Assembly (NCBI GenBank): GCA_041651115.1
Contig: JBAZJY010000002.1
Coordinates: forward strand, 158,855-222,854
Reading direction: 5' to 3'
Source: Candidatus Omnitrophota bacterium
GTDB lineage: Bacteria > Omnitrophota > Gorgyraeia > Gygaellales > Profunditerraquicolaceae
Length of the DNA: 64,000 nucleotides
The notes under the pieces are model-generated. The model ran no database searches, had not been told where the DNA came from, and worked only from the letters and a program-made list of their open reading frames with translations. How positions within the stretch are numbered: the first letter of the stretch is position 1; each line of letters begins with the position of its first letter. This document shows, one piece after another, positions 1,963-37,522 of this stretch. The position numbers were made by a program, and so were the translations under genes.

Positions 1963-2436
1963 ATGATGACGCAGCTTTCCATAGCCCAGTTTACCGATAA
2001 GCTGGCAGAGATCATGCCGGTGGTAATGAAGGAATTTGGCCGGCGAATAATCGATGGCCTGGAGAATAAGGTTACCCTGCCGCAGGTGCTGATCCTTGAA
2101 TTTTTAGAGAGGCAACAGGAATCCAAAATGAAGGACCTTGCCGGGTTTATGGGCGTCAGCACTGCCGCCTCTACCGGGATTGTTGACCGGTTGGTAAAAT
2201 GCGGCTATGTTGTCAGGGCATTTGACCCGGAAGACCGGCGCGTGATCAAGATAAGGCTTACGCCTAAAGGCTTTGGACTCTTAAAACAGATCAACCTGCA
2301 AAAGCACCGGATGGTCATGGGGGTATTCGGAAAAGTTTCCGAAGAAGACCGCCGCGATTATTTAAGGATCCTCACCCAAATCAAGGATATTCTGCTTAGT
2401 AACGGCAATCATCAGGAAAAAGGCAGCCATGTATAG
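1963..2436 (+). CDS. MarR family transcriptional regulator
   Basis: The wHTH LPQVLILEFL...MKDLAGFMGVSTAASTGIVDRLVKCGYV...DRRVIKIRLTPKG is a MarR signature. ATG at 1963 is chosen over the upstream GTG because GTGAGG serves as the RBS. Confidence 0.8.
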   Translation: MMTQLSIAQFTDKLAEIMPVVMKEFGRRIIDGLENKVTLPQVLILEFLERQQESKMKDLAGFMGVSTAASTGIVDRLVKCGYVVRAFDPEDRRVIKIRLTPKGFGLLKQINLQKHRMVMGVFGKVSEEDRRDYLRILTQIKDILLSNGNHQEKGSHV

Positions 2437-3997: not shown

Positions 3998-4000
3998 GCA

Positions 4001-4891: not shown

Positions 4892-7800
4892 ACCTTCCTG
4901 AATTCGGGGTAAAAAAACCGGTCACTAACTTAATGATCTTTTTGGCGATCATTATCCTTGCCGCCTACAGCATGACGCGCATCGGCATAGATATGATGCC
5001 TGAGATCGAACCGCCTGCGATCTCCGTGATTTCCACATATCCGGGAGCCAGCCCGGAAGACGTAGAGATCAAGGTTACCGAAGAGCTGGAAAACCAGCTT
5101 GCCACGACACCCGGCCTTGAGAAGCTGACTTCGGTTTCTTACGAAGGGGCATCATTAATCACTTTGAAATTCCTCTGGGGTACAAACCTGGATGAGGCTT
5201 CCAATGATATCCGCGACCGCATTGAATTGGCAAAGCGTTTCCTTCCCGACATACCCGATGAAATGGAGAATCCGTTCATTTTTAAATTCAATACGGCAAA
5301 TATTCCGATCATCTACTTAGGTATTACTGCAAAACAGTCTTATGCCGAGCTCTATGATATGGTGGACAAAAAAATCGGTGATGTGCTTCGTCAACTCCCG
5401 GGAGTAGGCACGGTGCAGATACAAGGCGGCGGCCTGGAGCGCCAGATCAATGTCTGGATCGATCGCCAGCAACTGGAGGGTTATGGATTTCCCATCCTTG
5501 ATATCAGCAACGCCCTGAAACGGGAAAATGTTACCCAGCCGGTAGGCAACCTGAAAACCGGGCTTACGGATTATCTCATCCGCCTGCCGGGTGAATTTGC
5601 CAATCCCGATGAAATAAACTTAGTGATCCTCGGTAAACGTAACGGGAATTTGGTTTATTTAAAAGATGTGGCGCGCATCGAGGATAGCTTCAAGGAAGAG
5701 ACCACGCGCGTACGCATCAACCAGGAGCCGGGCTTGATGTTGATGATCCAGAAACAAAGCGGTACCAATACCGTGGAAGTATCCGGCCGGGTAAAGGAAA
5801 AACTCAAAGAGTTAGAGAAGGTCATGCCTTCCGACGTGCGGCTGAATCTTATCTTTGATACCTCAAAAGACATCATTGATTCGGTAAATTCCTTGAAATC
5901 TTCGCTGTGGCTGGCGATCATCATGGTTATTGTCGTAGTCTGGTTCTTCCTGCGCCAGTTTGCGCCCAGCATGATCATTGCCCTGACCATTCCTTTTTCA
6001 CTCTTGATCAGCTTTATCTATCTTTTTTTAAGCGGCAAAACGATCAATACGATCAGCCTTTCTTCCATCGCCATTGCCACGGGCATGGTCGTGGATAACG
6101 CGATCGTTGTTGTGGATAATATAGTCAGGCGCTTTGAGCGGGGCAGCCGGCTGCAGGAAGCGGCGATCTTCGGTACTTCGGAAATGTTCCTTTCTATTGC
6201 CGCTTCTACAATGACCACAATAGTGGTCTTTATGCCGATGTTGTTCATCCCCGGTGTAGTCGGGATCATGTTCGGCGAGCTGGCGATCATCGTTATCGTT
6301 ACACTATTGGCGTCGCTTTTTACGGCCGCGACTTTTAGCCCGATGCTTTGCTCAAAATGGCTAAGGCCAAGCGCCAGTGGTAAAAACGGCAAAGCAAAGC
6401 TATTTTCCCAATTTTACGCGCTCTCCGAAAAATGGTTTATTAGCCTGGAGAGTTTCTATAGCCGCTGCCTGGGCCGGGCATTGCGGCATAAAAAAATAGT
6501 TGTCTTTGGTTTTTTTGCCGCATTTATTTTTAGCCTGCTTTTGGTTCCGCTGGTGGGAAATGAATTTATCCCCGAGGAAGATTCCGGCGACGTACGCATG
6601 ACCGTTTTTCTTCCGATCGGCACGCGCATGGAAGAGTCCGATAAGGTGGCGCAGAGGATAGAAGGGCTATTTAAAAGCAATGTCCCGGAAGCGCGGTTTT
6701 ATTATGCCCGAAGCGGTCAGATCACCGGCATGGGCAGGGTAATGGGTAATGCATCGGGTACACATATTATTTCTGCCGGGGTGAAGCTCGTGCCTAAGCA
6801 GCAAAGAAAGCGCTCGGTAGATGATGTGGCGCAGATGCTTAGAGGCAAGATAAAAAATATACCCGGAGTCTTAAAAACCGATATCGGTACCGGTAATCCT
6901 TTAAATCGCCTGATCACCGGAGCAGGCGGCAAGACCGTACAATTGGAGATCATCGGCCATTCCTTTGAGGAGACAGATGTTTTAGCTGAAAAGATCAAGG
7001 CTATCCTTGAAAAAATACCCGGCGCTGTAGATGTCAGCGTATCAAGAGAGGCTAACCGGCCGGAATTAAAGATTGAAGTTGACCGGCAAAAAGCCGCTAG
7101 CTTGGGTTTGGATATGAAGACCATTGCCGATTCCCTTAATATGTTCATCCAGGGCAGCTCGGCGACAAAATACCGCGAAAAGGGCGAAACTTACGATATA
7201 TATGTCCGGCTGGAAGAAAGCTCGCGCGCCACGCTGGAAGATATTGATAACCTTGCGGTCACCGCGCCGCTTCCGGAAGAAAGATCGTCATTCGCGGGGC
7301 TTGAGAACCTGGCTTCTTTAAAAGGAGTTTCCCGCAAGGCGATCAAGCTTTCCAATATCGCTAAAATTTACGAAACGGCAGTCCCGGAAAGCATTGAACG
7401 TAAGAATCGCGAAAGGGTGGTGCGCGTAGAATGTAATGCATTTAAGCGTTCATCGGGAAAGATCGTTGAGGATTTAAAACGGGAGTTGGATAAGATCGCC
7501 CTGCCGCAGGATATCCAGCTCGCTTTTGGCGGCACGGCAGAAGAGCAGACAAAGGCGTTTAAAGACTTGACCCTGCTTTTATTATTGGGCATTTCTCTTG
7601 TTTATATGGTTATGGCTGCGCAGTTTGAATCTTTTCTTGACCCGTTTATCGTTATGTTTGCTATTCCTTTTACTTTTATCGGCGTTGTCCTGGGTTTTAT
7701 CTTGACCGGAACGACTTTAAGCGTGATCACGTTCCTCGGCATAGTTATGCTGATGGGGATTGTCGTTAATAATGCTATTGTTTTGATCAGTTACATCAGC

Positions 7801-8079
7801 ATATTGCGCCAGCGCGGGCTATCAATGTTTGATGCGGTAACTGCCGGAGGCAGGGATAGGCTGCGTCCGGTTTTAATGACTACGATCACTACTCTTGCCG
7901 GCCTTTTACCTTTGGCGCTTTCGCGCGGCGAAGGCTCGGAGATCTGGCAGCCGCTGGGCATTACTATGATCGGCGGATTAAGCGTCTCTACTTTAATTAC
8001 TATGTTTTTTGTTCCCACGCTTTATGCGATATTCCATAAGAAGACGCAAATTGCGGCTGCAGGAGGGCCGGTAAAATGA
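4888..8079 (+). CDS. efflux RND transporter permease subunit (AcrB/HAE family)
   Basis: 1063 aa with 12 TM segments and two large periplasmic loops. Conserved RND segments such as GMVVDNAIVVVDNI and IVVNNAIVLI are present. Confidence 0.9.
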   Translation: MNLPEFGVKKPVTNLMIFLAIIILAAYSMTRIGIDMMPEIEPPAISVISTYPGASPEDVEIKVTEELENQLATTPGLEKLTSVSYEGASLITLKFLWGTNLDEASNDIRDRIELAKRFLPDIPDEMENPFIFKFNTANIPIIYLGITAKQSYAELYDMVDKKIGDVLRQLPGVGTVQIQGGGLERQINVWIDRQQLEGYGFPILDISNALKRENVTQPVGNLKTGLTDYLIRLPGEFANPDEINLVILGKRNGNLVYLKDVARIEDSFKEETTRVRINQEPGLMLMIQKQSGTNTVEVSGRVKEKLKELEKVMPSDVRLNLIFDTSKDIIDSVNSLKSSLWLAIIMVIVVVWFFLRQFAPSMIIALTIPFSLLISFIYLFLSGKTINTISLSSIAIATGMVVDNAIVVVDNIVRRFERGSRLQEAAIFGTSEMFLSIAASTMTTIVVFMPMLFIPGVVGIMFGELAIIVIVTLLASLFTAATFSPMLCSKWLRPSASGKNGKAKLFSQFYALSEKWFISLESFYSRCLGRALRHKKIVVFGFFAAFIFSLLLVPLVGNEFIPEEDSGDVRMTVFLPIGTRMEESDKVAQRIEGLFKSNVPEARFYYARSGQITGMGRVMGNASGTHIISAGVKLVPKQQRKRSVDDVAQMLRGKIKNIPGVLKTDIGTGNPLNRLITGAGGKTVQLEIIGHSFEETDVLAEKIKAILEKIPGAVDVSVSREANRPELKIEVDRQKAASLGLDMKTIADSLNMFIQGSSATKYREKGETYDIYVRLEESSRATLEDIDNLAVTAPLPEERSSFAGLENLASLKGVSRKAIKLSNIAKIYETAVPESIERKNRERVVRVECNAFKRSSGKIVEDLKRELDKIALPQDIQLAFGGTAEEQTKAFKDLTLLLLLGISLVYMVMAAQFESFLDPFIVMFAIPFTFIGVVLGFILTGTTLSVITFLGIVMLMGIVVNNAIVLISYISILRQRGLSMFDAVTAGGRDRLRPVLMTTITTLAGLLPLALSRGEGSEIWQPLGITMIGGLSVSTLITMFFVPTLYAIFHKKTQIAAAGGPVK

Positions 8080-8372
8080 GTTTAAAAATGGCAATGGTTG
8101 TTTATAATGAGGCCCTGGATATGGAAGTTATGGAGGCTATGGATTCCTGCGGGTTAAAAAATTATACAAAGGTAATGGGTGTTTTTGGCCGGGGAGAAGC
8201 TTCCGGCAGCCATTTAGGCAATGATATCTGGCCCGGAAGGAATAACATCCTGTATATTGCCTGCGAAGACGCGCAGGCCAGGAAGCTTATTGAGGCGATT
8301 AAGCAGCTGAGAAAAAAGATCGGCCATGAAGGCGCAAAGGCCTTTATTCTGCCGGTAGAAGAGATCACCTAG
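8076..8372 (+). CDS. PII-like (GlnB-like fold) small protein associated with the RND operon
   Basis: 98 aa with a beta-alpha-beta-beta-alpha-beta pattern (MVVYNEALDMEVMEAMD...GVFGRGEASG). It overlaps the RND stop. Confidence 0.4.
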   Translation: MSLKMAMVVYNEALDMEVMEAMDSCGLKNYTKVMGVFGRGEASGSHLGNDIWPGRNNILYIACEDAQARKLIEAIKQLRKKIGHEGAKAFILPVEEIT

Positions 8373-10470: not shown

Positions 10471-10734
10471 ATGAATTGGGAACCGGGTACAGAGGCAAGG
10501 TTCAAGGCAGTCATCTCTAAACTTCCGATCTTTCACCGCCGGATCGCCGAGAACGCTGTGGCCGTAAAGGCCGAAGAAAACGCCGGCGCAAGGAAAAGCC
10601 CGCAGGTTGAAGAGCAGGATGTGGTTGCCGCGTTCTTTTCAGACGTGCCTTCCCCGTTTTACAGTATGATGGTCCGCCTCCTGGAGCAGTCCGGTTTTGA
10701 TTATAAAAAATACGGTTACCCTAAGAACAAATGA
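10471..10734 (+). CDS. PCP-reductase-family small protein (protochlorophyllide reductase 57 kDa subunit C-terminal domain-like)
   Basis: 87 aa. The W..EA.ARFK....P.F.RR.AE..V...AE pattern matches standalone PF08369-type proteins. Confidence 0.45.
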   Translation: MNWEPGTEARFKAVISKLPIFHRRIAENAVAVKAEENAGARKSPQVEEQDVVAAFFSDVPSPFYSMMVRLLEQSGFDYKKYGYPKNK

Positions 10735-11735
10735 TGATTGCGGTGATTGGCAGCGGCGCCATAGGCGGCCTTGTTGCCGGGTATCTTAAAGAAAAAGGCC
10801 GGGACGTCCTATTGGTGGGTAACCCGGCTGCGGTAGAAGCGGTCAAGGTTAACGGCCTATCCATAAGCGGGGTAAGGGGCAATATTAAGGTAAAGATAGA
10901 TATTGCCAACCGTTTAGACCGGCAATACGGTCTGGTAGTGCTTGCGGTTAAGACGCAGGACGTTGAAAAAGCTGTAAAAGATAACCTCGCTTTTTTAAAG
11001 GACTCCGTAATCCTGACCGCGCAGAACGGTATTCAGGCGGATAATATTGTCAGCCGCTTTGTTGCCGAGGAAAAGATCGTTTCCAGTATTGTGATGTTCG
11101 GCTCAACCTGTATTGAGCCGGCAAAAATAGTGCATAATTTTGAAGGCGGCTGGATCATTGGCAAGGCCTTTGGCGCTGATGACAGCGTCGTAGATAAGGC
11201 GGCAGCGGCGCTTGGTGAAATATTCCCCGTAACCGTTGCTGCGGATATCCGGGGAATGAAATACCTGAAAGTATTTGTGAATGCCAATAACTGCATTCCG
11301 GCGATCCTGGGCATAAGCATGCAGGAAGCGTTTGCCGATATCCAAGTCAGCCGCATCAGCATTGCTATCTGGCGCGAAGGGTTTGATATTATCAGAAGGG
11401 CGGGGATAAAAATGGCTTCTTTGCCGGATTTTCCTCTGGAACGGCTGACCAGGCTTTTATCTTTACCCGCGCCTGAAGCGGCAAAGATTTTCTCCGGGAT
11501 CATGGCCAGCCTCAGTAAAGAGCCTTTATACGGGTCGATATTACAGAGCATAAAACGGGGAAAGTCTTCGGAAATAGATTATATCAACGGCGAATTCGTA
11601 AACATTAGCCGGCAGAATAACAGCCACGCTCCTTTAAATGAAAAATTAACGGAGATGGTGCATCGGGTGGAAAAAACCGGCAAATTCCTTTCTAAGCAGG
11701 AATTGCTTGAGGAAACGAAGGATTTAGTCGATTAA
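10731..11735 (+). CDS. 2-dehydropantoate 2-reductase family NAD(P)-dependent oxidoreductase (ApbA/PanE-like)
   Basis: N-terminal Rossmann IAVIGSGAIGGLVAGYL, 334 aa, KPR-family layout. Confidence 0.6.
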   Translation: MMIAVIGSGAIGGLVAGYLKEKGRDVLLVGNPAAVEAVKVNGLSISGVRGNIKVKIDIANRLDRQYGLVVLAVKTQDVEKAVKDNLAFLKDSVILTAQNGIQADNIVSRFVAEEKIVSSIVMFGSTCIEPAKIVHNFEGGWIIGKAFGADDSVVDKAAAALGEIFPVTVAADIRGMKYLKVFVNANNCIPAILGISMQEAFADIQVSRISIAIWREGFDIIRRAGIKMASLPDFPLERLTRLLSLPAPEAAKIFSGIMASLSKEPLYGSILQSIKRGKSSEIDYINGEFVNISRQNNSHAPLNEKLTEMVHRVEKTGKFLSKQELLEETKDLVD

Positions 11736-11736
11736 T

Positions 11737-12366
11737 ATGCAAGGCAAAAACGAAAATTATGACGCGGGCTCTGTAAATAGCCCGTTCCCAAAGCTAAAGC
11801 TTACCGTAACCAATGTTTTTGGGGAATGTTACCACGGGTATAAAGTAGGCGACGAGCTGGTTCTCGGCGATTTTACCCATCCGCCGAAACATTTTTGCCT
11901 GGGGCTGGCGCATGCCTTATTCCCGGTGATCTACGCGTTAAGTTTCGGGGCAAAGTTCGGCTTCCGCGATAACCAGCGTTCACTTTTAGTTACCTGCCCG
12001 GACGGCGGCAAGCTTGAATTCAAGGCTGAAGTTTTAGATAAGGACGGCAAGGTTGAATTCCTGCCTAAGGACCCCGGCCATAAAGGGCCGAACCCTAAAA
12101 AAATGATCATCGAGGCAGTCAAAGCAAAAGGTAAATGCGCATTTGGTTATAAAGTAGGAGATAAGTGGGAAACTACCGGGCTTAAATGCATTCCCGGGTT
12201 TTGCGGGGCTGCGTTTCATACCGCATTCCCCGCGTTATTTGCGCTTAATTTCGGGGCAAAGTTCTTTTTTATGCCCGATCCAAATTCCGTAGATACAGTT
12301 ACCTGCCCGGACGGCGGGAATATCGTGTTCAAAGTAAAAAGAGTGGAAGAAGAAGAGAAGGAATAG
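11737..12366 (+). CDS. tandem-duplicated TIGR04076-like Cys-containing protein
   Basis: Two internal repeats each carry C.HGYKVGD...G..C.G......FP...AL.FGAKF.F.......V.CPDGGN..FK. Each repeat resembles the ~90-aa TIGR04076 family. Confidence 0.5.
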   Translation: MQGKNENYDAGSVNSPFPKLKLTVTNVFGECYHGYKVGDELVLGDFTHPPKHFCLGLAHALFPVIYALSFGAKFGFRDNQRSLLVTCPDGGKLEFKAEVLDKDGKVEFLPKDPGHKGPNPKKMIIEAVKAKGKCAFGYKVGDKWETTGLKCIPGFCGAAFHTAFPALFALNFGAKFFFMPDPNSVDTVTCPDGGNIVFKVKRVEEEEKE

Positions 12367-12367
12367 T

Positions 12368-13630
12368 ATGAAAAAGAGAAGAGTGGTGATCACCGGTATC
12401 GGCACGGTTTCGCCTAATGGGATTGGTAAGGAGAATGCATGGAAGGCAATGTCTTCGGGAAAATCCGGGGTAAAGCTCGTGGATGGTTTTGACGTGTCAA
12501 TGTTCAACACGCAGATCGCTGCCGAGGTCAGGGATTTTGACCCGTTCAAATTAGGCCTGACGCATGAAGAAGCCGTGCGTATGGACAGGTATGTGCAATT
12601 TGGCGTAGTTGCCGGAGATATGGCAATAAAGGATTCCAGCCTTGATTTTTCCAAGGAAGACCCTGAGCGCGTAGGCGTTTGCCTTGCTAACGCCATCTGC
12701 GGCACGAAGTATATGGAAGAAGAGTTCGTTATGGTTACCGATAACGGTAAAAATCCCATTGACCCTTCGCGGGTGAGGCAGGACCTTTATGACGCGGCAA
12801 TGTTTAATACTCCTTCGATCGAACTGTCCGCGCGTTATAAATTAAAAGGCATCTGCAATACTTTATCCACCGGCTGTACTGCCGGCACGGATTCTTTAGG
12901 TTTTGCCCTGGAAACCATCCAGGATGGCGAACAGGATATCATGGTCGCGGGCGCAGCAGAGGCCCCGATCACCCCGATCACTTTCGGCGCGTTTGACGTG
13001 GTGAACGTCCTTTCCAGCCGCAATGCCGAGCCGGAAAAAGCGTCACGCCCGTTTGACAATAAGCGGGACGGCTTTGTGCTTTCGGAAGGCGCTGGTATTT
13101 TAATATTAGAAGAGCTTCAGCACGCGTTAAAACGTAACGCCCGCATATATTGCGAAGTGCTCGGCTTTGGCACGAGCTGCAATGCTTTCCATATGACTGA
13201 TCTGCCGGGTGATGGATCGGCAATGGCAAATTGCATAAGCATGGCGCTTAAGGACGCGGAAATGAAACCTCAGGAGATCGATTATATCAACGCGCACGGC
13301 TCATCTACGCGCATGAACGATATTTTTGAGACTTCTGCATATAAGATGATCTTTGGCGATTACGCCTATAAGCTGCCGATGAGCTCCTTTAAGTCAATGA
13401 TCGGCCATCCTTTGGCAGCGTCTAACGCAATTGAGCTGACGGTTTGCTCGATGATCTTCGAGAAAAATATCCTTCCTCCTACGATAAACCAGGAAGAAAA
13501 AGACCCCCTCTGCGACCTGGATTACATCCCGAATGTTGCCCGGGCAAAGAAGGTGAATACGATATTAAAGACAAGCAGCGGGTTTTCCGGAATTCATTCT
13601 TCGCTGATTATTAAACGTCTGGAGATATAA
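12368..13630 (+). CDS. beta-ketoacyl synthase, type II PKS KS-alpha-like
   Basis: 420 aa. Active-site LSTGCTAGTDSLG matches the KS-alpha signature, and His-His motifs are present (HMTD, NAHGSST). Confidence 0.8.
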   Translation: MKKRRVVITGIGTVSPNGIGKENAWKAMSSGKSGVKLVDGFDVSMFNTQIAAEVRDFDPFKLGLTHEEAVRMDRYVQFGVVAGDMAIKDSSLDFSKEDPERVGVCLANAICGTKYMEEEFVMVTDNGKNPIDPSRVRQDLYDAAMFNTPSIELSARYKLKGICNTLSTGCTAGTDSLGFALETIQDGEQDIMVAGAAEAPITPITFGAFDVVNVLSSRNAEPEKASRPFDNKRDGFVLSEGAGILILEELQHALKRNARIYCEVLGFGTSCNAFHMTDLPGDGSAMANCISMALKDAEMKPQEIDYINAHGSSTRMNDIFETSAYKMIFGDYAYKLPMSSFKSMIGHPLAASNAIELTVCSMIFEKNILPPTINQEEKDPLCDLDYIPNVARAKKVNTILKTSSGFSGIHSSLIIKRLEI

Positions 13631-14869
13631 ATGGCAAAGACAGCAATTACAGGGATCGGTATTGTCGCGCCCTCGGGTATAGGTAAGCGCCAGTTCTGGG
13701 CAAACGTTAAATCCGGACGTTCGTCCATAAAAGAGATCACCCGTTTTGACGCTTCAAAATATCCCGCGCATATTGCCGGCCAGATCGACGACTTAGAAAA
13801 ATATAGCCATGTTTCCGAGCGGCTTTTAAAAAAGATCGACGCATTTTCGCATATGGCCTTGATCGCATCCGAACTTGCGCTGCAGGATGCGGGTATTGAT
13901 ATCAAAAATGAAGACCCGAACCTCGTAGGTATATTTTTAGGCAATGCCATCGGCGGATGGCTCTATGCCGAAACCGAGCTGCGCGACCTGTATATTGAAG
14001 GCCGCGAGGGTGTGTCGCCTTATATGGCGTCGGCGTGGTTTCCCGCGGCGCCGCAAGGCCAGGTCTCCATTTATTACGGGATAAAAGGTTTCAGTAAAAC
14101 TGTAGTTGCCGACCGCGCCAGTTCTGCGATGGCCATCGGCTATGCCAATAAAACTTTAAGTAAGGATAAATTGAATATGATCCTTGCCGGCGGCATGGAA
14201 GCGCCGGTAACGCCTTACGCGCTGTTATGCTGCAATACTTACGGCGGGCTTTCTGTCGATAACGCGCATCCCGCGGCTGCTTACCGGCCGTTTGACAGGA
14301 AACGCAGCGGCTTTGTCATCGGCGAAGGCGCGGGGATCATGGTTATGGAGCCTATAGAGCGCGCAAAGGCGCGGAAGGCAAATATTTTAGCCTATACCTG
14401 CGGCTATGGTTACAGTTGTGACGCTATTGATCGGATTAATCCCGATGCTTCAGGTGTGCAATTGGCACGCGCGATAAAAATGGCGCTGAGTGACGCAAAA
14501 GTAAAAGCAGAAGAGATCGATTATATAAGCTTAGATGGACTGGCGGTAAAATCATGGGATGCAGGAGAGGTAGCGGCAATAAAGGAAGTTTTCGGGCCAA
14601 AGGCCAAAGGCATACCTGTAAGTTGCCCAAAATCAATGTTCGGTAATTTACTGGGCGCTTCCGGCGCAGTTGACCTGATCACCGCGGTTATGGCAATGGA
14701 AAACAGCCTGGTGCCTCCGACAATCAACCTTGACGACCCGGACTTGAACGGGCTAAACTATGTTACCGGGGAATCGCGCGAGTATAAAATAAATAAAGCC
14801 CTGATCATTTCCCGCGGCAGGGGCGGGATCAATTCAGCGTTGGTAATAGAAAAAGGAGGGTCAAAGTGA
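13631..14869 (+). CDS. ketosynthase-like chain-length-factor (KS-beta/CLF-like), catalytically inactive partner
   Basis: 412 aa KS fold. The active-site Cys is replaced (VADRASSAM aligns to STGCTAGTD), and the second His motif is lost (YISLDG instead of NAHG). Confidence 0.7.
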   Translation: MAKTAITGIGIVAPSGIGKRQFWANVKSGRSSIKEITRFDASKYPAHIAGQIDDLEKYSHVSERLLKKIDAFSHMALIASELALQDAGIDIKNEDPNLVGIFLGNAIGGWLYAETELRDLYIEGREGVSPYMASAWFPAAPQGQVSIYYGIKGFSKTVVADRASSAMAIGYANKTLSKDKLNMILAGGMEAPVTPYALLCCNTYGGLSVDNAHPAAAYRPFDRKRSGFVIGEGAGIMVMEPIERAKARKANILAYTCGYGYSCDAIDRINPDASGVQLARAIKMALSDAKVKAEEIDYISLDGLAVKSWDAGEVAAIKEVFGPKAKGIPVSCPKSMFGNLLGASGAVDLITAVMAMENSLVPPTINLDDPDLNGLNYVTGESREYKINKALIISRGRGGINSALVIEKGGSK

Positions 14870-16326
14870 AAATATTATTCGTAATGCCAAAAGTAGGGGC
14901 GTGGGCAACGCACGGCATTCATCGTTCGCCAAATCAACTTTATGCGCATTGGGCGGCATATGTGCGCGAAAGAGGCTATGAGGATGTGGCGGTTATAGAC
15001 GGCAAAGCCGATCAGATACCCATGGATCAACTGATTGAGCAGGTAAAAGAGAAGAATCCCGATGTCGTGGTCATGGGTGAACAGCTGCATGGTTATGGCG
15101 GATACGGAGTTTTGCGGCATTTTCACGATGCAGCCGTCGGCATTAAAAAAGCGCTTCCCAAAACAAAAATAGTTTTTGGCGGGTTATGGTATTCTGCCAT
15201 GCCTGTGCATACATTAGAAGGTATCCCTGAGGTAGACTTTGTAGTCATGGGCGAAGAAGAATCTTTCGGCGATCTGATCGAGGCAATCGATAAAAAGAAA
15301 GATTTTAAAGACGTGGGCGGAGTTACTTCGCGCATCGGCAGCGAGATTGTCATGGGGCCGCACAAGCCGCTCATGGAAGACCTGGATAAACTGCCGCTTC
15401 CGGCATATGACCTGTTCCCGATGGGTAAATACGTCGGGCACACCTATTGGAAGCCGTTCGTAGATATGGTTACTTCCCGCGGCTGCCCTTCTGCGTGTAC
15501 TTTTTGTTATGAGTGGGACCAGTTTGACCCGCGCAGCCCTTCGGATTTCCTGAAATGGCGCGCTAAATCACCGGAGCGGGTGATCGAAGAGATGGAGCTT
15601 TTACAGAATAAATACGGGGTCAAGGTAGTGGTGATCCAGGACGATAATTTTAACGTTGATCCTGCGCGCGTGAAAAGATTCTGCGAACTAAAGAAGCAGA
15701 AAAAGATAGATATTAAATGGGTTTCCCTGGGCCGCGCCATTGACTGGGTCAATTGCGAAAGCGTGCTTCCCCTGATGAAGGAGACCGGCTTGTTCATGGG
15801 CGTATTCGGCATTGAAGTTACTACGCAATCAGAGCTTAAAAAGATCGCCAAGGGCATAACTTTAGATCAGATCAAAAAAACCATCGAGATCCTGCGCAAG
15901 AACGACATCGCGATTGTCGCGGACATTATGATGGGTTTTGATTACGATACAGAAGAGATCATCAAACAGCGGTTTGAATTCACCGATCAGGTTGACCCGG
16001 ATATCCTTTGGGTCGGCTATGTCACGCCTGCGCCGAATTCCCCGATGTGGAAGATCGCCTTGAAGAAAAACTGGATTGACCCCAAAAAAGTTGATTTCAG
16101 CACCTGGGATTTCCTGCACCCGGTCATCCCTACCGATCATTTAAGTACTGAAGACCTGGGCAGGCTGGGTTCCTGGTGTATGCGTGAATTTTTCTCAAAG
16201 CCGGGCAGGATCAACCGGATCATGGAAAGCAATTTTGATATGCTTGCCAAGCTCTGTTTCAAGGATGTTATGGACGGGATTAACAAATGGGAAGCCGGAG
16301 CGACAAAAGGCGAGGTGCATATTTAA
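14866..16326 (+). CDS. B12-binding domain radical SAM protein (class B)
   Basis: N-terminal cobalamin-binding Rossmann-like domain. CPSACTFC cluster (CxxxCxxC) at residues ~200. 486 aa. Confidence 0.8.
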   Translation: MKILFVMPKVGAWATHGIHRSPNQLYAHWAAYVRERGYEDVAVIDGKADQIPMDQLIEQVKEKNPDVVVMGEQLHGYGGYGVLRHFHDAAVGIKKALPKTKIVFGGLWYSAMPVHTLEGIPEVDFVVMGEEESFGDLIEAIDKKKDFKDVGGVTSRIGSEIVMGPHKPLMEDLDKLPLPAYDLFPMGKYVGHTYWKPFVDMVTSRGCPSACTFCYEWDQFDPRSPSDFLKWRAKSPERVIEEMELLQNKYGVKVVVIQDDNFNVDPARVKRFCELKKQKKIDIKWVSLGRAIDWVNCESVLPLMKETGLFMGVFGIEVTTQSELKKIAKGITLDQIKKTIEILRKNDIAIVADIMMGFDYDTEEIIKQRFEFTDQVDPDILWVGYVTPAPNSPMWKIALKKNWIDPKKVDFSTWDFLHPVIPTDHLSTEDLGRLGSWCMREFFSKPGRINRIMESNFDMLAKLCFKDVMDGINKWEAGATKGEVHI

Positions 16327-16337
16327 CGGAGGCGGAT

Positions 16338-16577
16338 ATGGAAGTAAAAGAAAAGATTAAAGATGTGTTCGTGGATCTTTTAAAGGTCAAGCGCGCAGAA
16401 TTAAAAGACGATATCAACCTGCAGAGTTCGATCGGCGTGGATTCCACGGAAATGGTAGAGAGCGTGATCGCCCTGGAAAAGGCCTTCGGCGTGAAATTAA
16501 GCCCGAAAGAGATCACCAAATTTTCCACGCTTAACGACATTGAAAAGAATATCCAGTCCAAGCTGGCAGGTAAATAA
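16338..16577 (+). CDS. acyl carrier protein
   Basis: 79 aa from ATG at 16338, which follows a GGAGG RBS. It has the phosphopantetheine-attachment motif GVDSTEMVE. Confidence 0.75.
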   Translation: MEVKEKIKDVFVDLLKVKRAELKDDINLQSSIGVDSTEMVESVIALEKAFGVKLSPKEITKFSTLNDIEKNIQSKLAGK

Positions 16578-16578
16578 A

Positions 16579-17379
16579 ATGACGATAATCGACTTAAGCC
16601 TACCCATTGACGAACGCGCCCCGGAAGTGCACCCCTTCGGCATTGAACGGCTTGGCCATAAAGAAGGCGTGCGCCATTTAAACTGGGTGATGATGAAGAA
16701 AACCCTTTTGGGCCGGGTATCTTTTTTCCTGGGCAAGCGGCTGATCAAACCGCAGGAGCTTCCCGACGAGGAATTCCTTTCTTTGGAGACCGTGCATTGC
16801 CCGGTGCATATCGGCACGCATATTGACTATACATACCATTACGGCACGAAATGCGAAGGCCGCGCATCTAAGAGCATCAGCGAACTGCCCTTAAAATGGT
16901 GTTTTTCCGACGGCGTTGTCTTGAATTTCACTTTCCGCCAGCCCGGAGAGGTGATCTCGCGGCTGGACGTGGAAGAGGCGCTTAAGAAAATAAATTACAG
17001 CGTAAAGCCCAACGACATCGTGCTTTTCCATACGGCAGCGGACCGGTTTTTCGGCACGCTTGATTACCTGAATAATTACCCGGGAGTTTCTCCGGATGCC
17101 ATAGAATTCCTGCTGAATATGGGGGTGAAGATCATCGGTATAGACACCCTTGGGTTTGACCGGCCGTATAAATTCATGATGCGCGATTTTATGCGCACGA
17201 AAAACCCGGCATTCCTCTGGCCGGCGCATTTTTTCGGCAGGAAGCGGGAATACGCGCATATTGAGCGTCTTACTAATTTGGACAAGCTGCCGCCGTTTGG
17301 TTTCAAGATACAGTGTTTCCCGATCAAGATCCTTGATTGCGGCGCTGCCTGGGCAAGAGTAGTAGCAATATTAGATTAG
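16579..17379 (+). CDS. putative cyclase family protein (PF04199, kynurenine formamidase-like)
   Basis: The HCPVHIGTHIDYTYH metal-binding motif is typical of this family. Start is taken at ATG 16579, just after the ACP stop. Confidence 0.65.
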   Translation: MTIIDLSLPIDERAPEVHPFGIERLGHKEGVRHLNWVMMKKTLLGRVSFFLGKRLIKPQELPDEEFLSLETVHCPVHIGTHIDYTYHYGTKCEGRASKSISELPLKWCFSDGVVLNFTFRQPGEVISRLDVEEALKKINYSVKPNDIVLFHTAADRFFGTLDYLNNYPGVSPDAIEFLLNMGVKIIGIDTLGFDRPYKFMMRDFMRTKNPAFLWPAHFFGRKREYAHIERLTNLDKLPPFGFKIQCFPIKILDCGAAWARVVAILD

Positions 17380-17391
17380 AGAGGTGGAAAT

Positions 17392-17838
17392 ATGGGCCAT
17401 ACGTGTAATTCCATTATCATCAACGCGCCTTACGATTTGATTTTTGATATTTCCAACGACATCCCGCGCTGGACAGAATTGTTCGGCACAGAGTACCAGA
17501 AAGCCGAGATTGTAAAAAAAGAAGGCAATAAGATCACCTTCCGGCTTACCGATGACGAAGGAAAATCATGGCAGTCATGGCGGCTCTTGTTCAAGGACAA
17601 TTACCTTGCGTATGCGGAAAGAGAAGAGCCGAAATTCCCCTTTAAATATATGAAGATCATTTGGCTCTATACACCTAAGCCCGGGGGAATTGAGTTGACC
17701 TGGATTCAGCATTTTGAAATGGATGAAAAGGCCAAATTCAACGACGAGCAGGTGGAAGGCTTTATCAATAAGCACTCCAAGGACAATCTTAAGATATTTA
17801 AAGAAGTTATTGAAAAAGAAGCCAAGACAAATAAGTGA
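17392..17838 (+). CDS. SRPBCC / polyketide cyclase-dehydrase (Polyketide_cyc2-like) protein
   Basis: 148 aa, START/Bet v1-like composition resembling TcmN-type ARO/CYC domains. Confidence 0.5.
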   Translation: MGHTCNSIIINAPYDLIFDISNDIPRWTELFGTEYQKAEIVKKEGNKITFRLTDDEGKSWQSWRLLFKDNYLAYAEREEPKFPFKYMKIIWLYTPKPGGIELTWIQHFEMDEKAKFNDEQVEGFINKHSKDNLKIFKEVIEKEAKTNK

Positions 17839-18959
17839 AAAGGTCCTTATTCATTATCTTCTGTCTTGAAGGCGCGATCCTCTCTTTTAACGTCGCTGCC
17901 TGTTCAGCTTTGATCCCCTCAATCTCCCAGGAATTTTCTGTTTCACAATTTATCGCCGGCAGGGCAGTGTGGCTGTATATGCTGCCTTACGGGATCGCCG
18001 CGCTTTTATACGGTCCGCTGGTGCGGCGCTTTGACGCGCGCAGGATAGAATTAACCTGTTTTTTATTTTTTTCTTTGGCAAACCTGTTTGCCGCGCTTTC
18101 CCCGGACATCAACAGGTTTTTCACCGCCAGGCTTTTAATGGGCATATTCGGCGCTTCGGTGATCCCGCTGGTGTTGATACTGATCGCCCGCCACGGCGCG
18201 GCAAAGACAAGGGGCAGGCAGATAGGCGTATTTTTCAGCGCTACTTTTGTTGCCTCGCTTGCCGGTTTATTCTTAAGCGGGCTGATTAATTGGCGGATGA
18301 TCTTTCTTATTCCCGGCCTGGCAGGCATTGCGCTTTGGGTATACATGTATTTTAACCTGCCAAGTTTCCAGAAAGACTGCGGCGGTTTTAAAATAAATTA
18401 CCTGGCTGCTTTTAAAAGCAGGGCAGTGGTTTCCATATTTACCTATATATTCCTTATCAGCCTGCTTTATCACGGCGTTCAGCAGTGGCTGGGAGTATTT
18501 TTCTCCGTGAAATTCGGTTTAAGCCAGTTTTTAGTCAGCATGCTGGTAACGCTTACCAGCCTAAGCGGCATATTCGGCGAGGTGATCGGCGGCTGGCTTG
18601 CGGATACGCTCGGCAGGATAAGGACCATTGATTTGGGCATAATGATCATGATAGTGTCTTTAATATTACTGCTTTTTAAAATACCGCTTGTGATGATTGC
18701 CGTAGCGATGATTGCCTGGGGCCTGGGCTGGACATTTAATCATGCGGGTTTGTCTACGCTGCTTACCGACCTGCCGTCTGAATTCCTTAACGAGGCAGCG
18801 AGTTTGAACAGCAGCGTGCGTTTTGTTTCCGGCGGTGTAGGCGCGGCAGCAGGCGGCATGATCATGCAAAAAAGTTTTTCAACCGGTTTCATCATCGCGG
18901 CCGTAGCTTTAACCGCACTGGCCGTTTCAGCGAAAAAACTATTAAACCAAGGGGGATAA
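17835..18959 (+). CDS. MFS transporter
   Basis: 374 aa, ~12 TM helices with MFS loop motifs. Confidence 0.7.
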   Translation: MKRSLFIIFCLEGAILSFNVAACSALIPSISQEFSVSQFIAGRAVWLYMLPYGIAALLYGPLVRRFDARRIELTCFLFFSLANLFAALSPDINRFFTARLLMGIFGASVIPLVLILIARHGAAKTRGRQIGVFFSATFVASLAGLFLSGLINWRMIFLIPGLAGIALWVYMYFNLPSFQKDCGGFKINYLAAFKSRAVVSIFTYIFLISLLYHGVQQWLGVFFSVKFGLSQFLVSMLVTLTSLSGIFGEVIGGWLADTLGRIRTIDLGIMIMIVSLILLLFKIPLVMIAVAMIAWGLGWTFNHAGLSTLLTDLPSEFLNEAASLNSSVRFVSGGVGAAAGGMIMQKSFSTGFIIAAVALTALAVSAKKLLNQGG

Positions 18960-18960
18960 C

Positions 18961-19734
18961 ATGTCAGAACTAAAAGGAAAGACAGCGATCGTTACCGGCG
19001 CAAGCCGGGGCATTGGTAAGGCGCTTGCCTGTACAGCAGCAAGCCTGGGGATCAATTTAGCAATTGCCGCCCGGCAGGAAGGCCCGTTAAAAGAGACGGC
19101 GGATGAAATCGCCAAAAAATATAACGTTCAGGTCTTGCCGGTAGCCTGCGATGTTACCAAGCTTGAAGACCTTGAGAATCTGGTGAATAAGGCAAAGGAA
19201 AAATTCGGGAAAATAGATATCCTGATCAATAACGCCGGCGTTTCCAGCCAATACCCGTTCCATGAACAGCCGATAGAAGACTTTGAGAAACTGGCGCATA
19301 CCAATTACCTGGGCTATGTGCGCTTGATTCGCCTGGTGATCAATGATATGATTAAAAATAAATCCGGGGCGATCATTAACATGGTTTCCGGGTCAACGCT
19401 TTGTGACCCTTTACCGAGGAATTTTATCGTCTATAGTTCTTTAAAAGTCGGCTTGCGCGCATTTTCCAAGGCTTTATTTTGGGAGTTGCGCGACTACGGC
19501 ATAAAAGTGACTTCTCTTTTACCCGGGGTCACCGATACGGACCTGACCGGAAAGCTTAAAGAGATTACCAATGAAAATTCCCGGTTAATGTCTACCGAGG
19601 CAATTGAAAATGCAGTGAAATTCGCGCTTACTGTCCCGGCAAATGTCTGTCCATTGGAAATTGCCGTGATCAACCAGCAGACGCCGTGGACTGCGCCGGT
19701 TATACCATACAAGCAGGCACACCCGGGAAAATAA
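18961..19734 (+). CDS. SDR family oxidoreductase (ketoreductase)
   Basis: TGASRGIGKA Rossmann motif, NNAG, and the YSSLK catalytic Tyr-Lys pair. Confidence 0.85.
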   Translation: MSELKGKTAIVTGASRGIGKALACTAASLGINLAIAARQEGPLKETADEIAKKYNVQVLPVACDVTKLEDLENLVNKAKEKFGKIDILINNAGVSSQYPFHEQPIEDFEKLAHTNYLGYVRLIRLVINDMIKNKSGAIINMVSGSTLCDPLPRNFIVYSSLKVGLRAFSKALFWELRDYGIKVTSLLPGVTDTDLTGKLKEITNENSRLMSTEAIENAVKFALTVPANVCPLEIAVINQQTPWTAPVIPYKQAHPGK

Positions 19735-19775
19735 CTTCGTCTGGTGCATCATCTTTGTTGAAAAAGGAGGAGAAT

Positions 19776-20381
19776 GTGAAGAAAATATTATTAGCAGCGA
19801 TGTTTTTACTGATTTCGGCTTCTCTGTCTTTCGCGCAAGGGGATAATCTTCTCATTGATGATTTTGAAGGTGCGATTTCCGGCGGGCCTGAAGGCACGGT
19901 TGATTTTGGGGCGGGCAACGGCTCCGCGGTCCAGGTTTTGGCAGCTACGGATATTAAACATTCCGGCAGCCATTCGCTTAAAGTTGATTATGATGCCCTG
20001 GCCGGAGGGTATATTTATGTGGCAAAGGGCAGCGGCCTTGATGCAAAAAATGCCGGATGGCTGGTTAAGCCGGAAGACATTGACTGGAAGGCTTACAAGG
20101 CAATAATTTTTTATATGTACGGCAGTGATTCCAAGGTTGATGTGGCATTTGACATCAAGGACAGCGGCGGGGAGCTGTGGCGTTTTATTGTCAAAGATGA
20201 TTTTACCGGTTGGAAACCGATCCTTTGCCCGTTTGCGGAGTTTTTTGCCCGCAGCGATTGGCAGCCGGAAAGCGCGGATAAAAACGGGAATATAGATTTC
20301 CCTCTTAAGCACTACCAATTTGAGCCGTTGCCCGAAGCAAAGGGCGTGCTTTATTTTGACGAAGTTGAGCTGGTAAAATAG
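19776..20381 (+). CDS. secreted beta-sandwich protein (CIA30/CBM-like), hypothetical
   Basis: GTG start after AAGGAGG. Signal peptide KKILLAAMFLLISASLSFAQG, then a DDFEG...W.......G galactose-binding-like pattern. Confidence 0.4.
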   Translation: MKKILLAAMFLLISASLSFAQGDNLLIDDFEGAISGGPEGTVDFGAGNGSAVQVLAATDIKHSGSHSLKVDYDALAGGYIYVAKGSGLDAKNAGWLVKPEDIDWKAYKAIIFYMYGSDSKVDVAFDIKDSGGELWRFIVKDDFTGWKPILCPFAEFFARSDWQPESADKNGNIDFPLKHYQFEPLPEAKGVLYFDEVELVK

Positions 20382-20405
20382 GATAACCTTAATGGAGGGC
20401 AGGAA

Positions 20406-20822
20406 ATGACTAAGCAGGATATCAAGAATTTGAAGAAACGCTACCTTGTCTGGCTGTATATGACCACCAAAGAGGCATTTGACCGCTACGAAAGAAAATT
20501 CACCCAGCTGGACATTGATACATTCATGCTTTTTGAGATGGAGAAAGAGCTTAAAGGCGCATACCTGCCCGGAGACAAAAAGACGTTGGAAAAATACATT
20601 AATGATTTTCGCGAATATATTGCCGAGAAAGAAAAAGTCTGCCTGAAGTTAAAGTATAAAGATAAAAGGATCGACCCGGAATTCCTTTTTCTTGATATAA
20701 AACTGGATGCGCTTGAAAAAGCGATCGTCAAAGAATTAGGCACAAAGGCCCTGGATGAGATAAAGGCGTTTTACGAATCTGAAATGACCGAGAAGATCTC
20801 GCGGGGGACAAAGCATAAATGA
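20406..20822 (+). CDS. hypothetical protein
   Basis: 138 aa charged helical ORF, co-directional and overlapping the next gene. No recognisable motif. Confidence 0.35.
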   Translation: MTKQDIKNLKKRYLVWLYMTTKEAFDRYERKFTQLDIDTFMLFEMEKELKGAYLPGDKKTLEKYINDFREYIAEKEKVCLKLKYKDKRIDPEFLFLDIKLDALEKAIVKELGTKALDEIKAFYESEMTEKISRGTKHK

Positions 20823-21730
20823 TCATTGACGCGCACAGCCACTGGCTTCCCGAAGAAATAATCAGCAATGCCCATTTTTATTCCAAGGCATGGGGCCAGA
20901 TCAGCTCGCAGATAGAGATCATGGCAGCTGCGGGCATTGATAAGGCGGTCTTAAGCTATCCGACTTCCGACGCGCACTTAAAATTAGGCGGGTCACTTGA
21001 GGTGGCGCAGATCTATAACGACAACGTGGCGGATATCATCAAGCAGGCGCCGGATCAATTCATCGGGGCAGCAATCCTGCCCGTGGAAGATAAAATGAAA
21101 ATGCTCGCGGAATTCAGGCGGGCAACCGAAGATCTCGGGTTTAAGGCATTGTCACTGGCATCAAGCTATGACGGCGCATATCTTGACGATAAGCGCTTTT
21201 TCCCGCTTTATGAAAAAGCAGCGCAAAAGAACCTGCCGGTCTTCGTGCATTCCCAGATCGTTAATCCTATCGGCTTTGAGCGCGTGCAGGATCCGCTGCT
21301 GACGCCGGTGATTGAGTATGTCTTTGATACGACGATCTGCATCGGCAAATTATTAATGAGCGGGGTGCTTGCGGAATTTAACAGCGTAAAATTCATTTTT
21401 GCGCATTTTGGCGGGGTAATCCCGCATCTTGCTTACCGTTTTGACGCGACTTACCAGATGCTGCGTTCAATAAATTTCGTCAAAGACTTAAAAGGCAATC
21501 CTACGCAATTCTTAAAGAATATTTATGTGGATACCAGCGGAGACGTGCGCCAGGCTAATTTCCTTGCCGCGCTTGAGCTGGTGGGCCCGGACCATATTTT
21601 GTGGGGCAGCGATTGGCCGGCAAAAAAAGACCCGGCTGCTTCGATCAAAGCAGTACAGGACTTAGACATATCCGCTGCCGATAAAACAGCAATCCTCGGC
21701 AACAATTTAGCAAAGCTGTTCGCTCTTTAA
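20819..21730 (+). CDS. amidohydrolase-2 family protein (PF04909, decarboxylase/hydrolase type)
   Basis: N-terminal IIDAHSHWLPEEI and C-terminal ILWGSDWP metal-ligand motifs of the ACMSD-type amidohydrolase family. Confidence 0.75.
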   Translation: MIIDAHSHWLPEEIISNAHFYSKAWGQISSQIEIMAAAGIDKAVLSYPTSDAHLKLGGSLEVAQIYNDNVADIIKQAPDQFIGAAILPVEDKMKMLAEFRRATEDLGFKALSLASSYDGAYLDDKRFFPLYEKAAQKNLPVFVHSQIVNPIGFERVQDPLLTPVIEYVFDTTICIGKLLMSGVLAEFNSVKFIFAHFGGVIPHLAYRFDATYQMLRSINFVKDLKGNPTQFLKNIYVDTSGDVRQANFLAALELVGPDHILWGSDWPAKKDPAASIKAVQDLDISAADKTAILGNNLAKLFAL

Positions 21731-22190: not shown

Positions 22191-22940
22191 ATGCAAATGG
22201 TTAAGGATGTGCATTTGACGGGTAAGGATTTGACGCAGATGGTGCAGCTCAGACCGCAGGACGTGGGCAAATACGCGATCGTGCCCGGGCCAAAGGACCG
22301 GCTGGAAGTTTTATTAAAAAAGATGGAGAATCCGGTAAAGAATTTCTCATTCATGGAATACACCATGTACACCGGTATGTATCAAGGCATCAAGCTCACC
22401 GGTATAAACGGCGGCAGGTTCTCCACCGACACTTCCATCACTTCGGAAGTAATGTGCAATGCCGGTATACAGAATATCATCCGTATCGGCACCTGCGGTT
22501 CTTTGGATGAAAATATTAAAGTCGGGGACATTGTTGTGGTAGATAAAGTGATCCGCGGCGACGGAGTAACCCCGTATTATGTGGATAAGGATTTTCAGAC
22601 CGTAGCCGACAAAAAGATCACCGATACTTTATTTGAAGTTGCTAAAGGTATGGGTGTCAACGTGCATCGCGGATGCGCCTGGACAACCGACGCGCTGCTG
22701 CGCGAAACAAGGGAGATCGTAGAGGCAAAGCGCAAAGAAGGTGCGATTGCCGTGGATATGGTTTCCTCAACGCTCCTGACCATTGCCCAAACATATAATG
22801 TCAAAGCCGGATCGATCCTGGCGGTAAGCGACAACGTGATCACCGGCGAGATGGGTTTTATGAACCCGCTTTATTATATGGCAGAATCAAGCTTGATCAG
22901 CATTGCTTTGGAAACCGTAAAGAAGCTGGAAGGAAAATAA
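22191..22940 (+). CDS. PNP/UDP phosphorylase family nucleoside phosphorylase (MTA/5'-deoxyadenosine phosphorylase candidate)
   Basis: 249 aa. GTCGSL phosphate-binding segment and PNP_UDP_1 fold pattern. AAGGAG RBS. Confidence 0.65.
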   Translation: MQMVKDVHLTGKDLTQMVQLRPQDVGKYAIVPGPKDRLEVLLKKMENPVKNFSFMEYTMYTGMYQGIKLTGINGGRFSTDTSITSEVMCNAGIQNIIRIGTCGSLDENIKVGDIVVVDKVIRGDGVTPYYVDKDFQTVADKKITDTLFEVAKGMGVNVHRGCAWTTDALLRETREIVEAKRKEGAIAVDMVSSTLLTIAQTYNVKAGSILAVSDNVITGEMGFMNPLYYMAESSLISIALETVKKLEGK

Positions 22941-23881
22941 TGAAATTTTCTCCGCTTTTCTGGCCGATTGAATACAAGAATAGCGCTGTTTATATCCTTG
23001 ATGAGACGCTGCTGCCGCATAAAGTGCGCTATATAAAGGCAGGCAACTATATCCAGGCCTGCAAGGCGATTAAAGAAATGAAAACGCGCGCTGTGGGCCA
23101 GGTGATCTTGGTGTTCTATACTTTTCTGATGGTATTAAACCAGAATAAGGGCAAAAAAGATATTCTGCCGATATTAAAAAAAGTTAGCGAAGAAATTAAC
23201 GCCACGCGGCCCACGCTTTCCTTTAAATATCTCACGGATATGGTACTTGGTTGGGCTGCTCAAGGAGCGCCGTTAGAAAAAAGTATCCCGGGATTTTTGG
23301 AAACTTTAAAGAACAGCCGGATCAAACAGGCAGAACAAGCGGCAAAGCTCTTGAACGATAAAGACGTGGTCCTGACGCATTGCAATGTCAGCGGCCTCCT
23401 GCCTTTGATCGCGGAATTCTGCCGTAAAGAAAACAAAACGATCAGTTTTTTTGCCACGGAAACCCGGCCTTATTTACAGGGTTCGCGCCTGACTGCATGG
23501 GAATTAAGCGAAGCAGGCATTGACGTGACTATCATTGCCGATAATATGGTGGCCCAGGTCATGCAGGAAGGAAAGATCAATAAGGTGATCGTCGGCGCAG
23601 ACCACTTGGCGCAGAACGGCGACATTGCCAATAAGATCGGCACGTACCAGATCGCGATCATTGCCAGGCGTTTTAATGTGCCGTTCTATGTCTTATGCCC
23701 GCCGGCATCAAGGCTGGCAACGGGAAAAGAGATCAAGATCGAGATCCGGCCGGACAAAGAGTTATTGGAATATCAGGGTATTCAGCTTGCGCCAAAAGGG
23801 GCAAAAGGGTATTATCCGGCATTTGACGTCACACCCGCGGAATTGATCACTAAACACATTTACTTGGAGATTCCCCGATGA
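22940..23881 (+). CDS. mtnA: S-methyl-5-thioribose-1-phosphate isomerase family (eIF-2B alpha/beta/delta-like, MtnA-like)
   Basis: 313 aa with the e2B-family layout. The N-terminus ...AVYILDETLLPHKVRYIKAG..AC.AIKEM.TRAVGQ is typical of MtnA. Confidence 0.65.
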   Translation: MKFSPLFWPIEYKNSAVYILDETLLPHKVRYIKAGNYIQACKAIKEMKTRAVGQVILVFYTFLMVLNQNKGKKDILPILKKVSEEINATRPTLSFKYLTDMVLGWAAQGAPLEKSIPGFLETLKNSRIKQAEQAAKLLNDKDVVLTHCNVSGLLPLIAEFCRKENKTISFFATETRPYLQGSRLTAWELSEAGIDVTIIADNMVAQVMQEGKINKVIVGADHLAQNGDIANKIGTYQIAIIARRFNVPFYVLCPPASRLATGKEIKIEIRPDKELLEYQGIQLAPKGAKGYYPAFDVTPAELITKHIYLEIPR

Positions 23882-36104: not shown

Positions 36105-36105
36105 T

Positions 36106-37512: not shown

Positions 37513-37522
37513 GAGACAAGAT

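Follow-up and report, generated by a model that had tools for sequence, protein, structure and literature searches.

A probable chain-length factor with arginine in place of the catalytic cysteine in a conserved polyketide synthase operon of Omnitrophota

A 64,000-nucleotide stretch of a metagenome-assembled genome of a Candidatus Omnitrophota bacterium (contig JBAZJY010000002.1, positions 158,855 to 222,854; hereafter the window) encodes, at 13631..14869 on the + strand, a protein with a ketosynthase (KS) fold which has lost its entire catalytic triad and which is most likely the chain-length factor (CLF, or KS-beta) of an aromatic type II polyketide synthase (PKS). It would work together with the KS-alpha encoded directly upstream, and only the KS-alpha of this pair would be condensing. 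The 412 aa protein, read from an ATG start, is of an Arg type, with a vestigial triad R162/D302/N339 after D161, and has kept Lys334 and the 'AWF' motif. The initial annotation of this DNA, which was made from the sequence alone, described the open reading frame (ORF) as a paralog of the upstream KS, and it is present exactly as described there. The two proteins are 35% identical over their full length (BLASTP, E = 5e-88), the CLF carries both ketoacyl-synthase domains at full length (Pfam; PF00109, 2.1e-41 and PF02801, 2.3e-25), and its AlphaFold2 model (predicted local distance difference test, pLDDT, of 89.9) has the thiolase/FabF fold.

The triad columns were read from three independent alignments, i.e., by BLASTP to the upstream KS, by phmmer to the Listeria FabF 3o04, and by MAFFT with the act CLF; all three gave identical columns for R162, D302, and N339 and were gapless around these sites. 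The Arg at the active-site Cys that the initial annotation had proposed was recovered in each of them, with Arg162 (in VADRASSAM; codon CGC at 14114..14116, a single transition from the Cys codon TGC) placed on the Cys of STGCTAGTD in the upstream KS. The replacement of the NAHG His motif by YISLDG likewise stood, and it is Asp302 (GAT, 14534..14536) that aligns to the first catalytic His, a position at which canonical CLFs also have Asp. The second catalytic His, which the annotation did not mention, is lost as well, its column being occupied by Asn339 (AAT, 14645..14647) within SMFGNLL. A Cys merely displaced by a local indel, the alternative that the annotation had named, was ruled out, since the alignments are gapless and the only Cys residues of the protein are at positions 200, 201, 257, 263, and 332; the nearest to position 162 is 200, and none lies within 35 residues. 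A sequencing artefact could also be excluded, because the R/D/N triad is found in 120 out of 120 close homologs (79-100% identity, public data) and because all six Arg codons are used at related loci. Two residues of the KS catalytic network, Lys334 and Glu313, show no variation. By motif, the chain-length gate residues F109/T112/F116 of act correspond to W110/A113/L117 in the Omnitrophota CLF, but we claim no chain length as this segment has low model confidence (pLDDT 57-67).

The KS-alpha gene (12368..13630, +) codes for a protein of 420 aa with an intact triad composed of Cys170 (in STGCTAGTD), His310 (in NAHG), and His347 (in IGHP), in addition to Lys342. Its best solved relative was the act KS 1tqy_A (2.4e-113), followed by AntD 6smo_B (7.8e-111), with every FabF behind both, and by these matches it is a type II PKS KS-alpha and not a fatty-acid FabF. 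The KS stop codon TAA directly abuts the ATG of the CLF (TAAATG), which is preceded at a distance of 8 nt by a GGAG; the two genes are thus translationally coupled. Of 84 related loci, 81 have the pair, and the others are contig ends. We also identified 17 natural fusion proteins, in which an N-terminal Cys-His-His KS is joined to a C-terminal dead KS and which thus support a physical KS-CLF partnership; Arg occurs in one of them. These fusions (P0122, P0124, P0127, and 14 others, of 759-869 aa, from metagenomes) are very diverse at the former Cys position, where T, R, G, A, N, W, M, Y, V, and F were found.

Searches against the PDB with the CLF returned FabF at 1.5e-83, the act CLF 1tqy_B at 6e-78, and the act KS 1tqy_A at 3.5e-65 (phmmer), and the AlphaFold2 model superposes equally on FabF and on the act CLF, with template modelling (TM) scores of 0.93-0.96 and a value of 0.93 for the act CLF (Foldseek). 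Because such best matches cannot separate CLF from FabF, it is the tree, the motifs, and the context that decide the assignment. Tests for FabF identity failed: the triad is R/D/N, and the scores were 375.8 for TIGR03150 (cut-off 493.75) and 364.6 for NF005589 (cut-off 387). A neighbor-joining (NJ) tree with 200 bootstraps was computed from 50%-identity representatives of an exhaustive HMMER search, together with both proteins of the window and the act CLF sequence. The non-Cys sequences formed one clade apart from the Cys-His-His ketosynthases in 194 out of 200 bootstraps, and this clade contains the query, the act CLF, and Gln-type relatives. The grouping is supported by derived characters that the Omnitrophota CLF has in common with the act CLF: both carry Asp in the column of the first His and an acidic residue ahead of the former Cys, and both have the 'AWF' motif, which is represented by W136 and F137 in the Omnitrophota CLF and is invariant in the alignment. 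P0141 was the lone Cys-bearing member inside the CLF clade (199/200 bootstraps), its nucleophile column reading E-C and its two His columns holding Ala and His; the Cys may be either a retention or a reversion.

Several points weigh against the assignment. Both the sequence and the fold searches place FabF slightly ahead of the act CLF; the tree is an NJ tree on a query-biased sample, outside of which stand the AntE-, Iga12-, and ApeC-type CLFs; heterodimer formation and chain-length control are attributed to the protein through homology; and the putative PF04199 cyclase of the operon (see below) is only weakly similar to solved hydrolases. The proposal of the initial annotation, that the protein would be non-condensing and a CLF or heterodimer partner, is nevertheless backed by the coupled adjacency of the two genes, the clade, the presence of minimal-PKS and cyclase genes, and the KS-CLF fusions.

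A CLF without Cys could in principle retain a catalysis of its own, i.e., decarboxylation of malonyl-ACP (ACP, acyl carrier protein) for priming, or acyl transfer, with Arg162 binding the malonyl carboxylate instead of the Gln of KSQ domains and CLFs. The Gln of act-type CLFs is credited with decarboxylative priming, and the 'chain initiation factor' model is reportedly that of Bisang et al. from 1999. Residual catalysis would fit with the strict conservation of Arg162 in the presence of synonymous codon turnover, with the invariant Lys334 and Glu313, and with the fact that both His are kept in some Arg-type relatives such as Ktedonobacter racemifer (R/H/H). However, both His for decarboxylation are gone (D302, N339) in the query and in all 120 of the close homologs, and the residues at the His positions vary freely among the Arg-type relatives (D/E/H/A/N/S), which is a poor fit to a shared catalytic site. 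With both His gone and these positions drifting among relatives, we consider such a residual activity improbable. The KSQ domains of the loading modules of modular PKSs resemble the CLF in having a KS fold with the nucleophile replaced, but they keep the His-His pair and decarboxylate, whereas the Omnitrophota CLF has neither the Gln nor the pair. As neither the Gln nor either His is present, the Omnitrophota CLF is unlikely to be a malonyl-ACP decarboxylase in the sense of a 'chain initiation factor', and priming would therefore fall to the KS-alpha. Arg162, Asp161, and Asp302 probably occupy what is left of the active-site pocket between them and neutralise its charge, with a salt bridge proposed between Arg162 and an Asp. 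Canonical CLFs also hold one Asp and one Arg among the three triad positions, their Arg being at the second His position.

The statement of the initial annotation that CLFs normally carry Gln and that Arg is unusual holds with respect to the actinobacterial CLFs (act, Gln/Asp/Arg) but not within the protein's own branch, where Arg occupies the Cys column in 19 of the 36 non-Cys representatives nearest to the query (against Gln in 4, Thr in 4, and Lys in 3). Arg is mostly found in a D-R-A-S/G motif, and the His positions of the Arg-type relatives vary (RDN, REH, RDH, RHH, RAN, and others). Among these relatives are P0126 (R/E/H) of Clostridium beijerinckii and C. puniceum, which are clostrubin producers, P0134 (R/H/H) of K. 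racemifer, P0135 (R/D/H) of Archangium violaceum, and P0121 (R/D/N) from metagenome-assembled genomes (MAGs) of Deltaproteobacteria, the last with 59% identity to the query. The Clostridium and K. racemifer systems have already been the subject of experiments. The Arg of the Omnitrophota CLF is a clade trait and not an oddity. We found no comment on Arg at the CLF Cys position in the limited collection of literature searched. The Gln hallmark is missing from the Omnitrophota CLF, which has Arg162 instead, and as Gln is also absent from the CLFs of C. beijerinckii/puniceum and K. racemifer and from AntE, it is the mark of an actinobacterial subclade and not of the CLF family.

All 200 replicates of the tree place the Gln-type clade within the Arg-type assemblage, two or more nodes deep, and the root set by Fitch parsimony contains Arg in about 196 of the 200 replicates and Gln in one. 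The genetic code agrees with an order Cys to Arg to Gln, because Cys (TGY) to Arg (CGY) and Arg (CGR) to Gln (CAR) each take one transition, as against three changes for Cys to Gln directly. The Arg type thus appears to have come first, with the Gln-type CLFs of actinobacteria derived from it; this polarity is tentative, given an NJ tree on a query-biased sample with several CLF lineages outside it.

The conservation of the CLF was addressed by a scan of species-representative genomes, which gave 570 confirmed relatives; among the best 80 of these 570, from which the identities were taken, the CLF is 76-89% identical to the query. Nearly all of these 80 are labelled Omnitrophota or 'uncultured Planctomycetales', with few others (one 'Patescibacteria group' and several 'bacterium'). 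The operon (window 10471-21730; related loci L005-L084) is syntenic in at least 80 Omnitrophota species. Its gene order, seen in nearly all loci long enough to show it, is DUF2621-like, ApbA, TIGR04076, KS, CLF, radical S-adenosylmethionine (SAM) enzyme, ACP, PF04199 cyclase, SRPBCC, (major facilitator superfamily, MFS), short-chain dehydrogenase/reductase (SDR), (CBM11), hypothetical, Amidohydro_2, PNP, and IF-2B. Identities across loci are 80-87% for the KS, 75-94% for the radical SAM protein, 66-94% for the SRPBCC protein, and 79-90% for the SDR, and this conservation is at a housekeeping level which is unusual for a secondary-metabolite cluster. The core was also retained in a Desulfobacterota locus (L001), where the radical SAM gene is placed further upstream in the cluster. 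Two contigs of a single MAG (binchicken_co115_127; loci L077 and L080) carry the operon with identical per-gene identities, and these are probably an assembly or binning duplicate and not two real copies.

Loss of the entire triad could also mark a decaying KS duplicate without function, i.e., a pseudo-enzyme on its way out. The ORF is intact at every locus examined, and the pairwise ratio of nonsynonymous to synonymous substitution (dN/dS) against 78 orthologs, with dS saturated, is about 0.05 for the CLF, near the 0.036 of the active KS, and the radical SAM gene has a value of 0.03. The motif scan missed two of the 84 loci; in the other 82 the Arg codon was CGG (37), AGG (20), CGC (15), CGT (5), AGA (3), or CGA (2), and since all six codons are in use the residue must be maintained by selection. 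Together with the 76-89% identity across at least 80 species, this speaks against decay, to which we attach a negligible probability; the selection data (dN/dS of about 0.05) exclude it.

Among known systems, the Omnitrophota CLF shares with the act CLF (1TQY chain B) the fold (TM 0.93), about 36% identity, a gene position directly after the KS-alpha, the lack of Cys, the three characters given above (Asp at the first His position, the acidic residue, and 'AWF'), and the tree clade. It differs in the triad (Gln/Asp/Arg in act, Arg/Asp/Asn in Omnitrophota), in the absence of the Gln, and in the host, an anaerobic candidate phylum in place of an actinomycete. Closer in sequence is the CLF of C. 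beijerinckii and C. puniceum, with Arg in D-R-A-S/G (TTVADRASGMM), 44-45% identity, an anaerobic host, and a cluster that likewise holds KS-CLF, a PF04199 cyclase, an SRPBCC cyclase, and an Amidohydro_2 protein; its triad, however, is R/E/H and not R/D/N, and the flanks of the Clostridium CLF showed no B12-radical-SAM, ApbA, or TIGR04076 genes. Organism and context make it very probable that this protein (P0126) is ClrB, from the type II PKS for clostrubin. The K. racemifer CLF is also Arg-type (TFVSDRASGAY), falls in the same clade, and is about 39% identical, but it keeps both His (R/H/H) and comes from the phylum Chloroflexota with other cluster content. The K. racemifer pair (KrKSCLF) has been expressed in E. 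coli and purified (bioRxiv 10.1101/2020.05.18.102780). AntE, the CLF of the Photorhabdus AQ-256 anthraquinone synthase, has Asp at the Cys column according to an alignment legend (PMC6638757). It is a further characterized non-actinobacterial CLF without the canonical Gln, and AntD, with which it pairs, ranks second among the solved matches of the upstream KS, but the residue at the Cys position is Asp and not Arg. AntE was absent among the PDB matches listed for the CLF query.

The other genes of the operon, all on the + strand, bear on the kind of product that the pair would make. Between the CLF and the ACP in Omnitrophota lies a gene (14866..16326) for a B12-binding radical SAM enzyme which is BchE/HpnJ-like but below the cut-offs of both families; its GTG start overlaps the CLF stop (GTGA). 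The ACP (16338..16577, 79 aa) has its phosphopantetheine-attachment Ser in GVDSTE (codon from 16443) and is followed by the PF04199 'putative cyclase' (16579..17379, 266 aa). The mechanical ORF starts of these two genes (16287-16577 and 16540-17379) overlap their neighbours, and the ATGs at 16338 and 16579 are likelier starts; the ACP ortholog of L001 is likewise of 79 aa. Next come a TcmN-type SRPBCC aromatase/cyclase (ARO/CYC; 17392..17838), which matches TcmN ARO/CYC 2rez (2.1e-26) at full length and WhiE 3tvr (4.5e-22), an MFS transporter (17835..18959) present in 42 of the 84 related loci, an SDR which is a putative polyketide ketoreductase (18961..19734), its 79-90% identity being that across Omnitrophota, and an Amidohydro_2 protein (20819..21730), a possible decarboxylase or hydrolase also found in the Desulfobacterota and Clostridium clusters. 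Always upstream of the TIGR04076 gene and the KS is an ApbA/PanE-like NAD(P)H reductase gene (10731-11735). The tandem TIGR04076 protein (11737-12366) is always encoded directly upstream of the KS; this tandem-duplicated gene is 72-92% identical across loci and also present in L001, and no link of TIGR04076 to polyketide synthesis was found in the literature searched. The G+C content is flat across the operon, and there is thus no sign of recent transfer. We take the PF04199 protein to be a putative counterpart of OxyN, from the OxyN/ActIV cyclases. An 'ancestral' non-actinomycete type II PKS architecture, KS-CLF-ACP-TcmN-OxyN, has been described for dendrubin, clostrubin, AQ-256, and pyxidicycline (PMC7693217). 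The Omnitrophota gene set agrees with it in KS-CLF-ACP, a TcmN-type ARO/CYC, and, in the slot there labelled OxyN, a PF04199 cyclase, the departures being the reversed order of the cyclases and the radical SAM gene between CLF and ACP. KS-CLF pairs in Candidatus Omnitrophica are already present in a bioinformatic catalogue (PMC10132072).

A B12-radical-SAM gene inside the minimal PKS, the labelling of clusters in Omnitrophota as 'ladderane' by genome mining (PMC9902471), and scores of the CLF and KS against FabF that are nearly as high as those against PKS proteins could instead point to a lipid, polyene, or 'ladderane-like' pathway of fatty-acid type (highly reducing type II) and not to an aromatic PKS. 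The radical SAM protein, however, scored only 74.7 against the ladderane-associated TIGR04072 ('lipid biosynthesis B12-binding/radical SAM protein'; cut-off 360), no FabZ/FabA-type dehydratase or enoyl reductase was found in the operon, the upstream KS is nearest to the act KS and AntD, and a full-length TcmN-type aromatase/cyclase is present. A test for the highly reducing type II PKSs (the KS-CLF of ishigamide, aryl polyene, and cispentacin) also failed, with a score of 147 for the AmcF model against a cut-off of 325 and no dehydratase in the operon. We therefore regard a pathway of this type as quite unlikely and retain the aromatic type II PKS.

In the aromatic PKS proposed here, KS-alpha and CLF would be co-produced by translational coupling and would most likely form a heterodimer, as expected from what is known of the family. 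The coupling, the natural KS-CLF fusions, and the strong purifying selection lend this indirect support. Condensation of malonyl-ACP units would be carried out by the KS-alpha only (Cys170/His310/His347), and the CLF, by the same family knowledge, would give half of a tunnel at the dimer interface which sets the chain length. The nascent ACP-bound chain would next be processed by the SDR ketoreductase and by two cyclases, the TcmN-type aromatase/cyclase and the PF04199 protein. Anaerobic tailoring would be the task of the B12-radical-SAM enzyme, along with the ApbA-like reductase and the Amidohydro_2 protein. That an anaerobic lineage has conserved a BchE-like radical SAM protein within its minimal PKS suggests tailoring that needs no oxygen, either a methylation or an oxidation.

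Neighbouring loci in the window include an efflux operon of the resistance-nodulation-division type (2429-8372; OEP, HlyD-like, AcrB-like) which ends in a small P-II-like gene overlapping the AcrB stop; in 13-15 other loci of Omnitrophota, too, the AcrB-PII pair precedes the PKS operon. Downstream of the operon, methionine-salvage-like genes (22191-24879) encode a PNP/methylthioadenosine-phosphorylase-like protein, an IF-2B/MtnA-like protein, and a class II aldolase-SCP2 fusion. They hold this position in many loci, including the Desulfobacterota locus, and may recycle radical SAM by-products, or the adjacency may be coincidental. Further along, after an ATP-binding cassette transporter (31581-33736), are five consecutive radical SAM genes (33708-41202), of which one codes for 798 aa, another has a B12-binding domain, and the remaining three have SPASM domains. 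This array is followed by several glycosyltransferase genes in a row and two PMT_2 genes (41333-50562). The radical SAM and glycosyltransferase genes at 33708-50562 may be a peptide- or glycan-modification cluster.

These findings correct the shortcut by which a CLF is a KS with Gln, which covers the actinobacterial subclade only; annotation rules that rely on Gln will overlook or misname the older CLFs from outside the actinobacteria. The role of the Arg is directly testable in Arg-type systems which are tractable in the laboratory (Clostridium, Ktedonobacter). The findings also bring to light a type II PKS operon whose conservation is very strong, in a phylum that is largely uncultured and mostly anaerobic, and a degree of conservation so unusual for a secondary-metabolite cluster suggests that the product is important to the biology of Omnitrophota. 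As a speculative extension, Arg-type CLFs may be ancestral, with Arg as the single-nucleotide intermediate between the Cys of the KS and the Gln (TGY to CGY, CGR to CAR), and the Omnitrophota operon may be inherited vertically and encode an aromatic polyketide pathway of nearly housekeeping character that needs no oxygen and includes a B12-radical-SAM enzyme of its own. On this view its product would belong to the core metabolism of the phylum, e.g., as a polyketide-derived quinone or cofactor, and would not be an occasional antibiotic.

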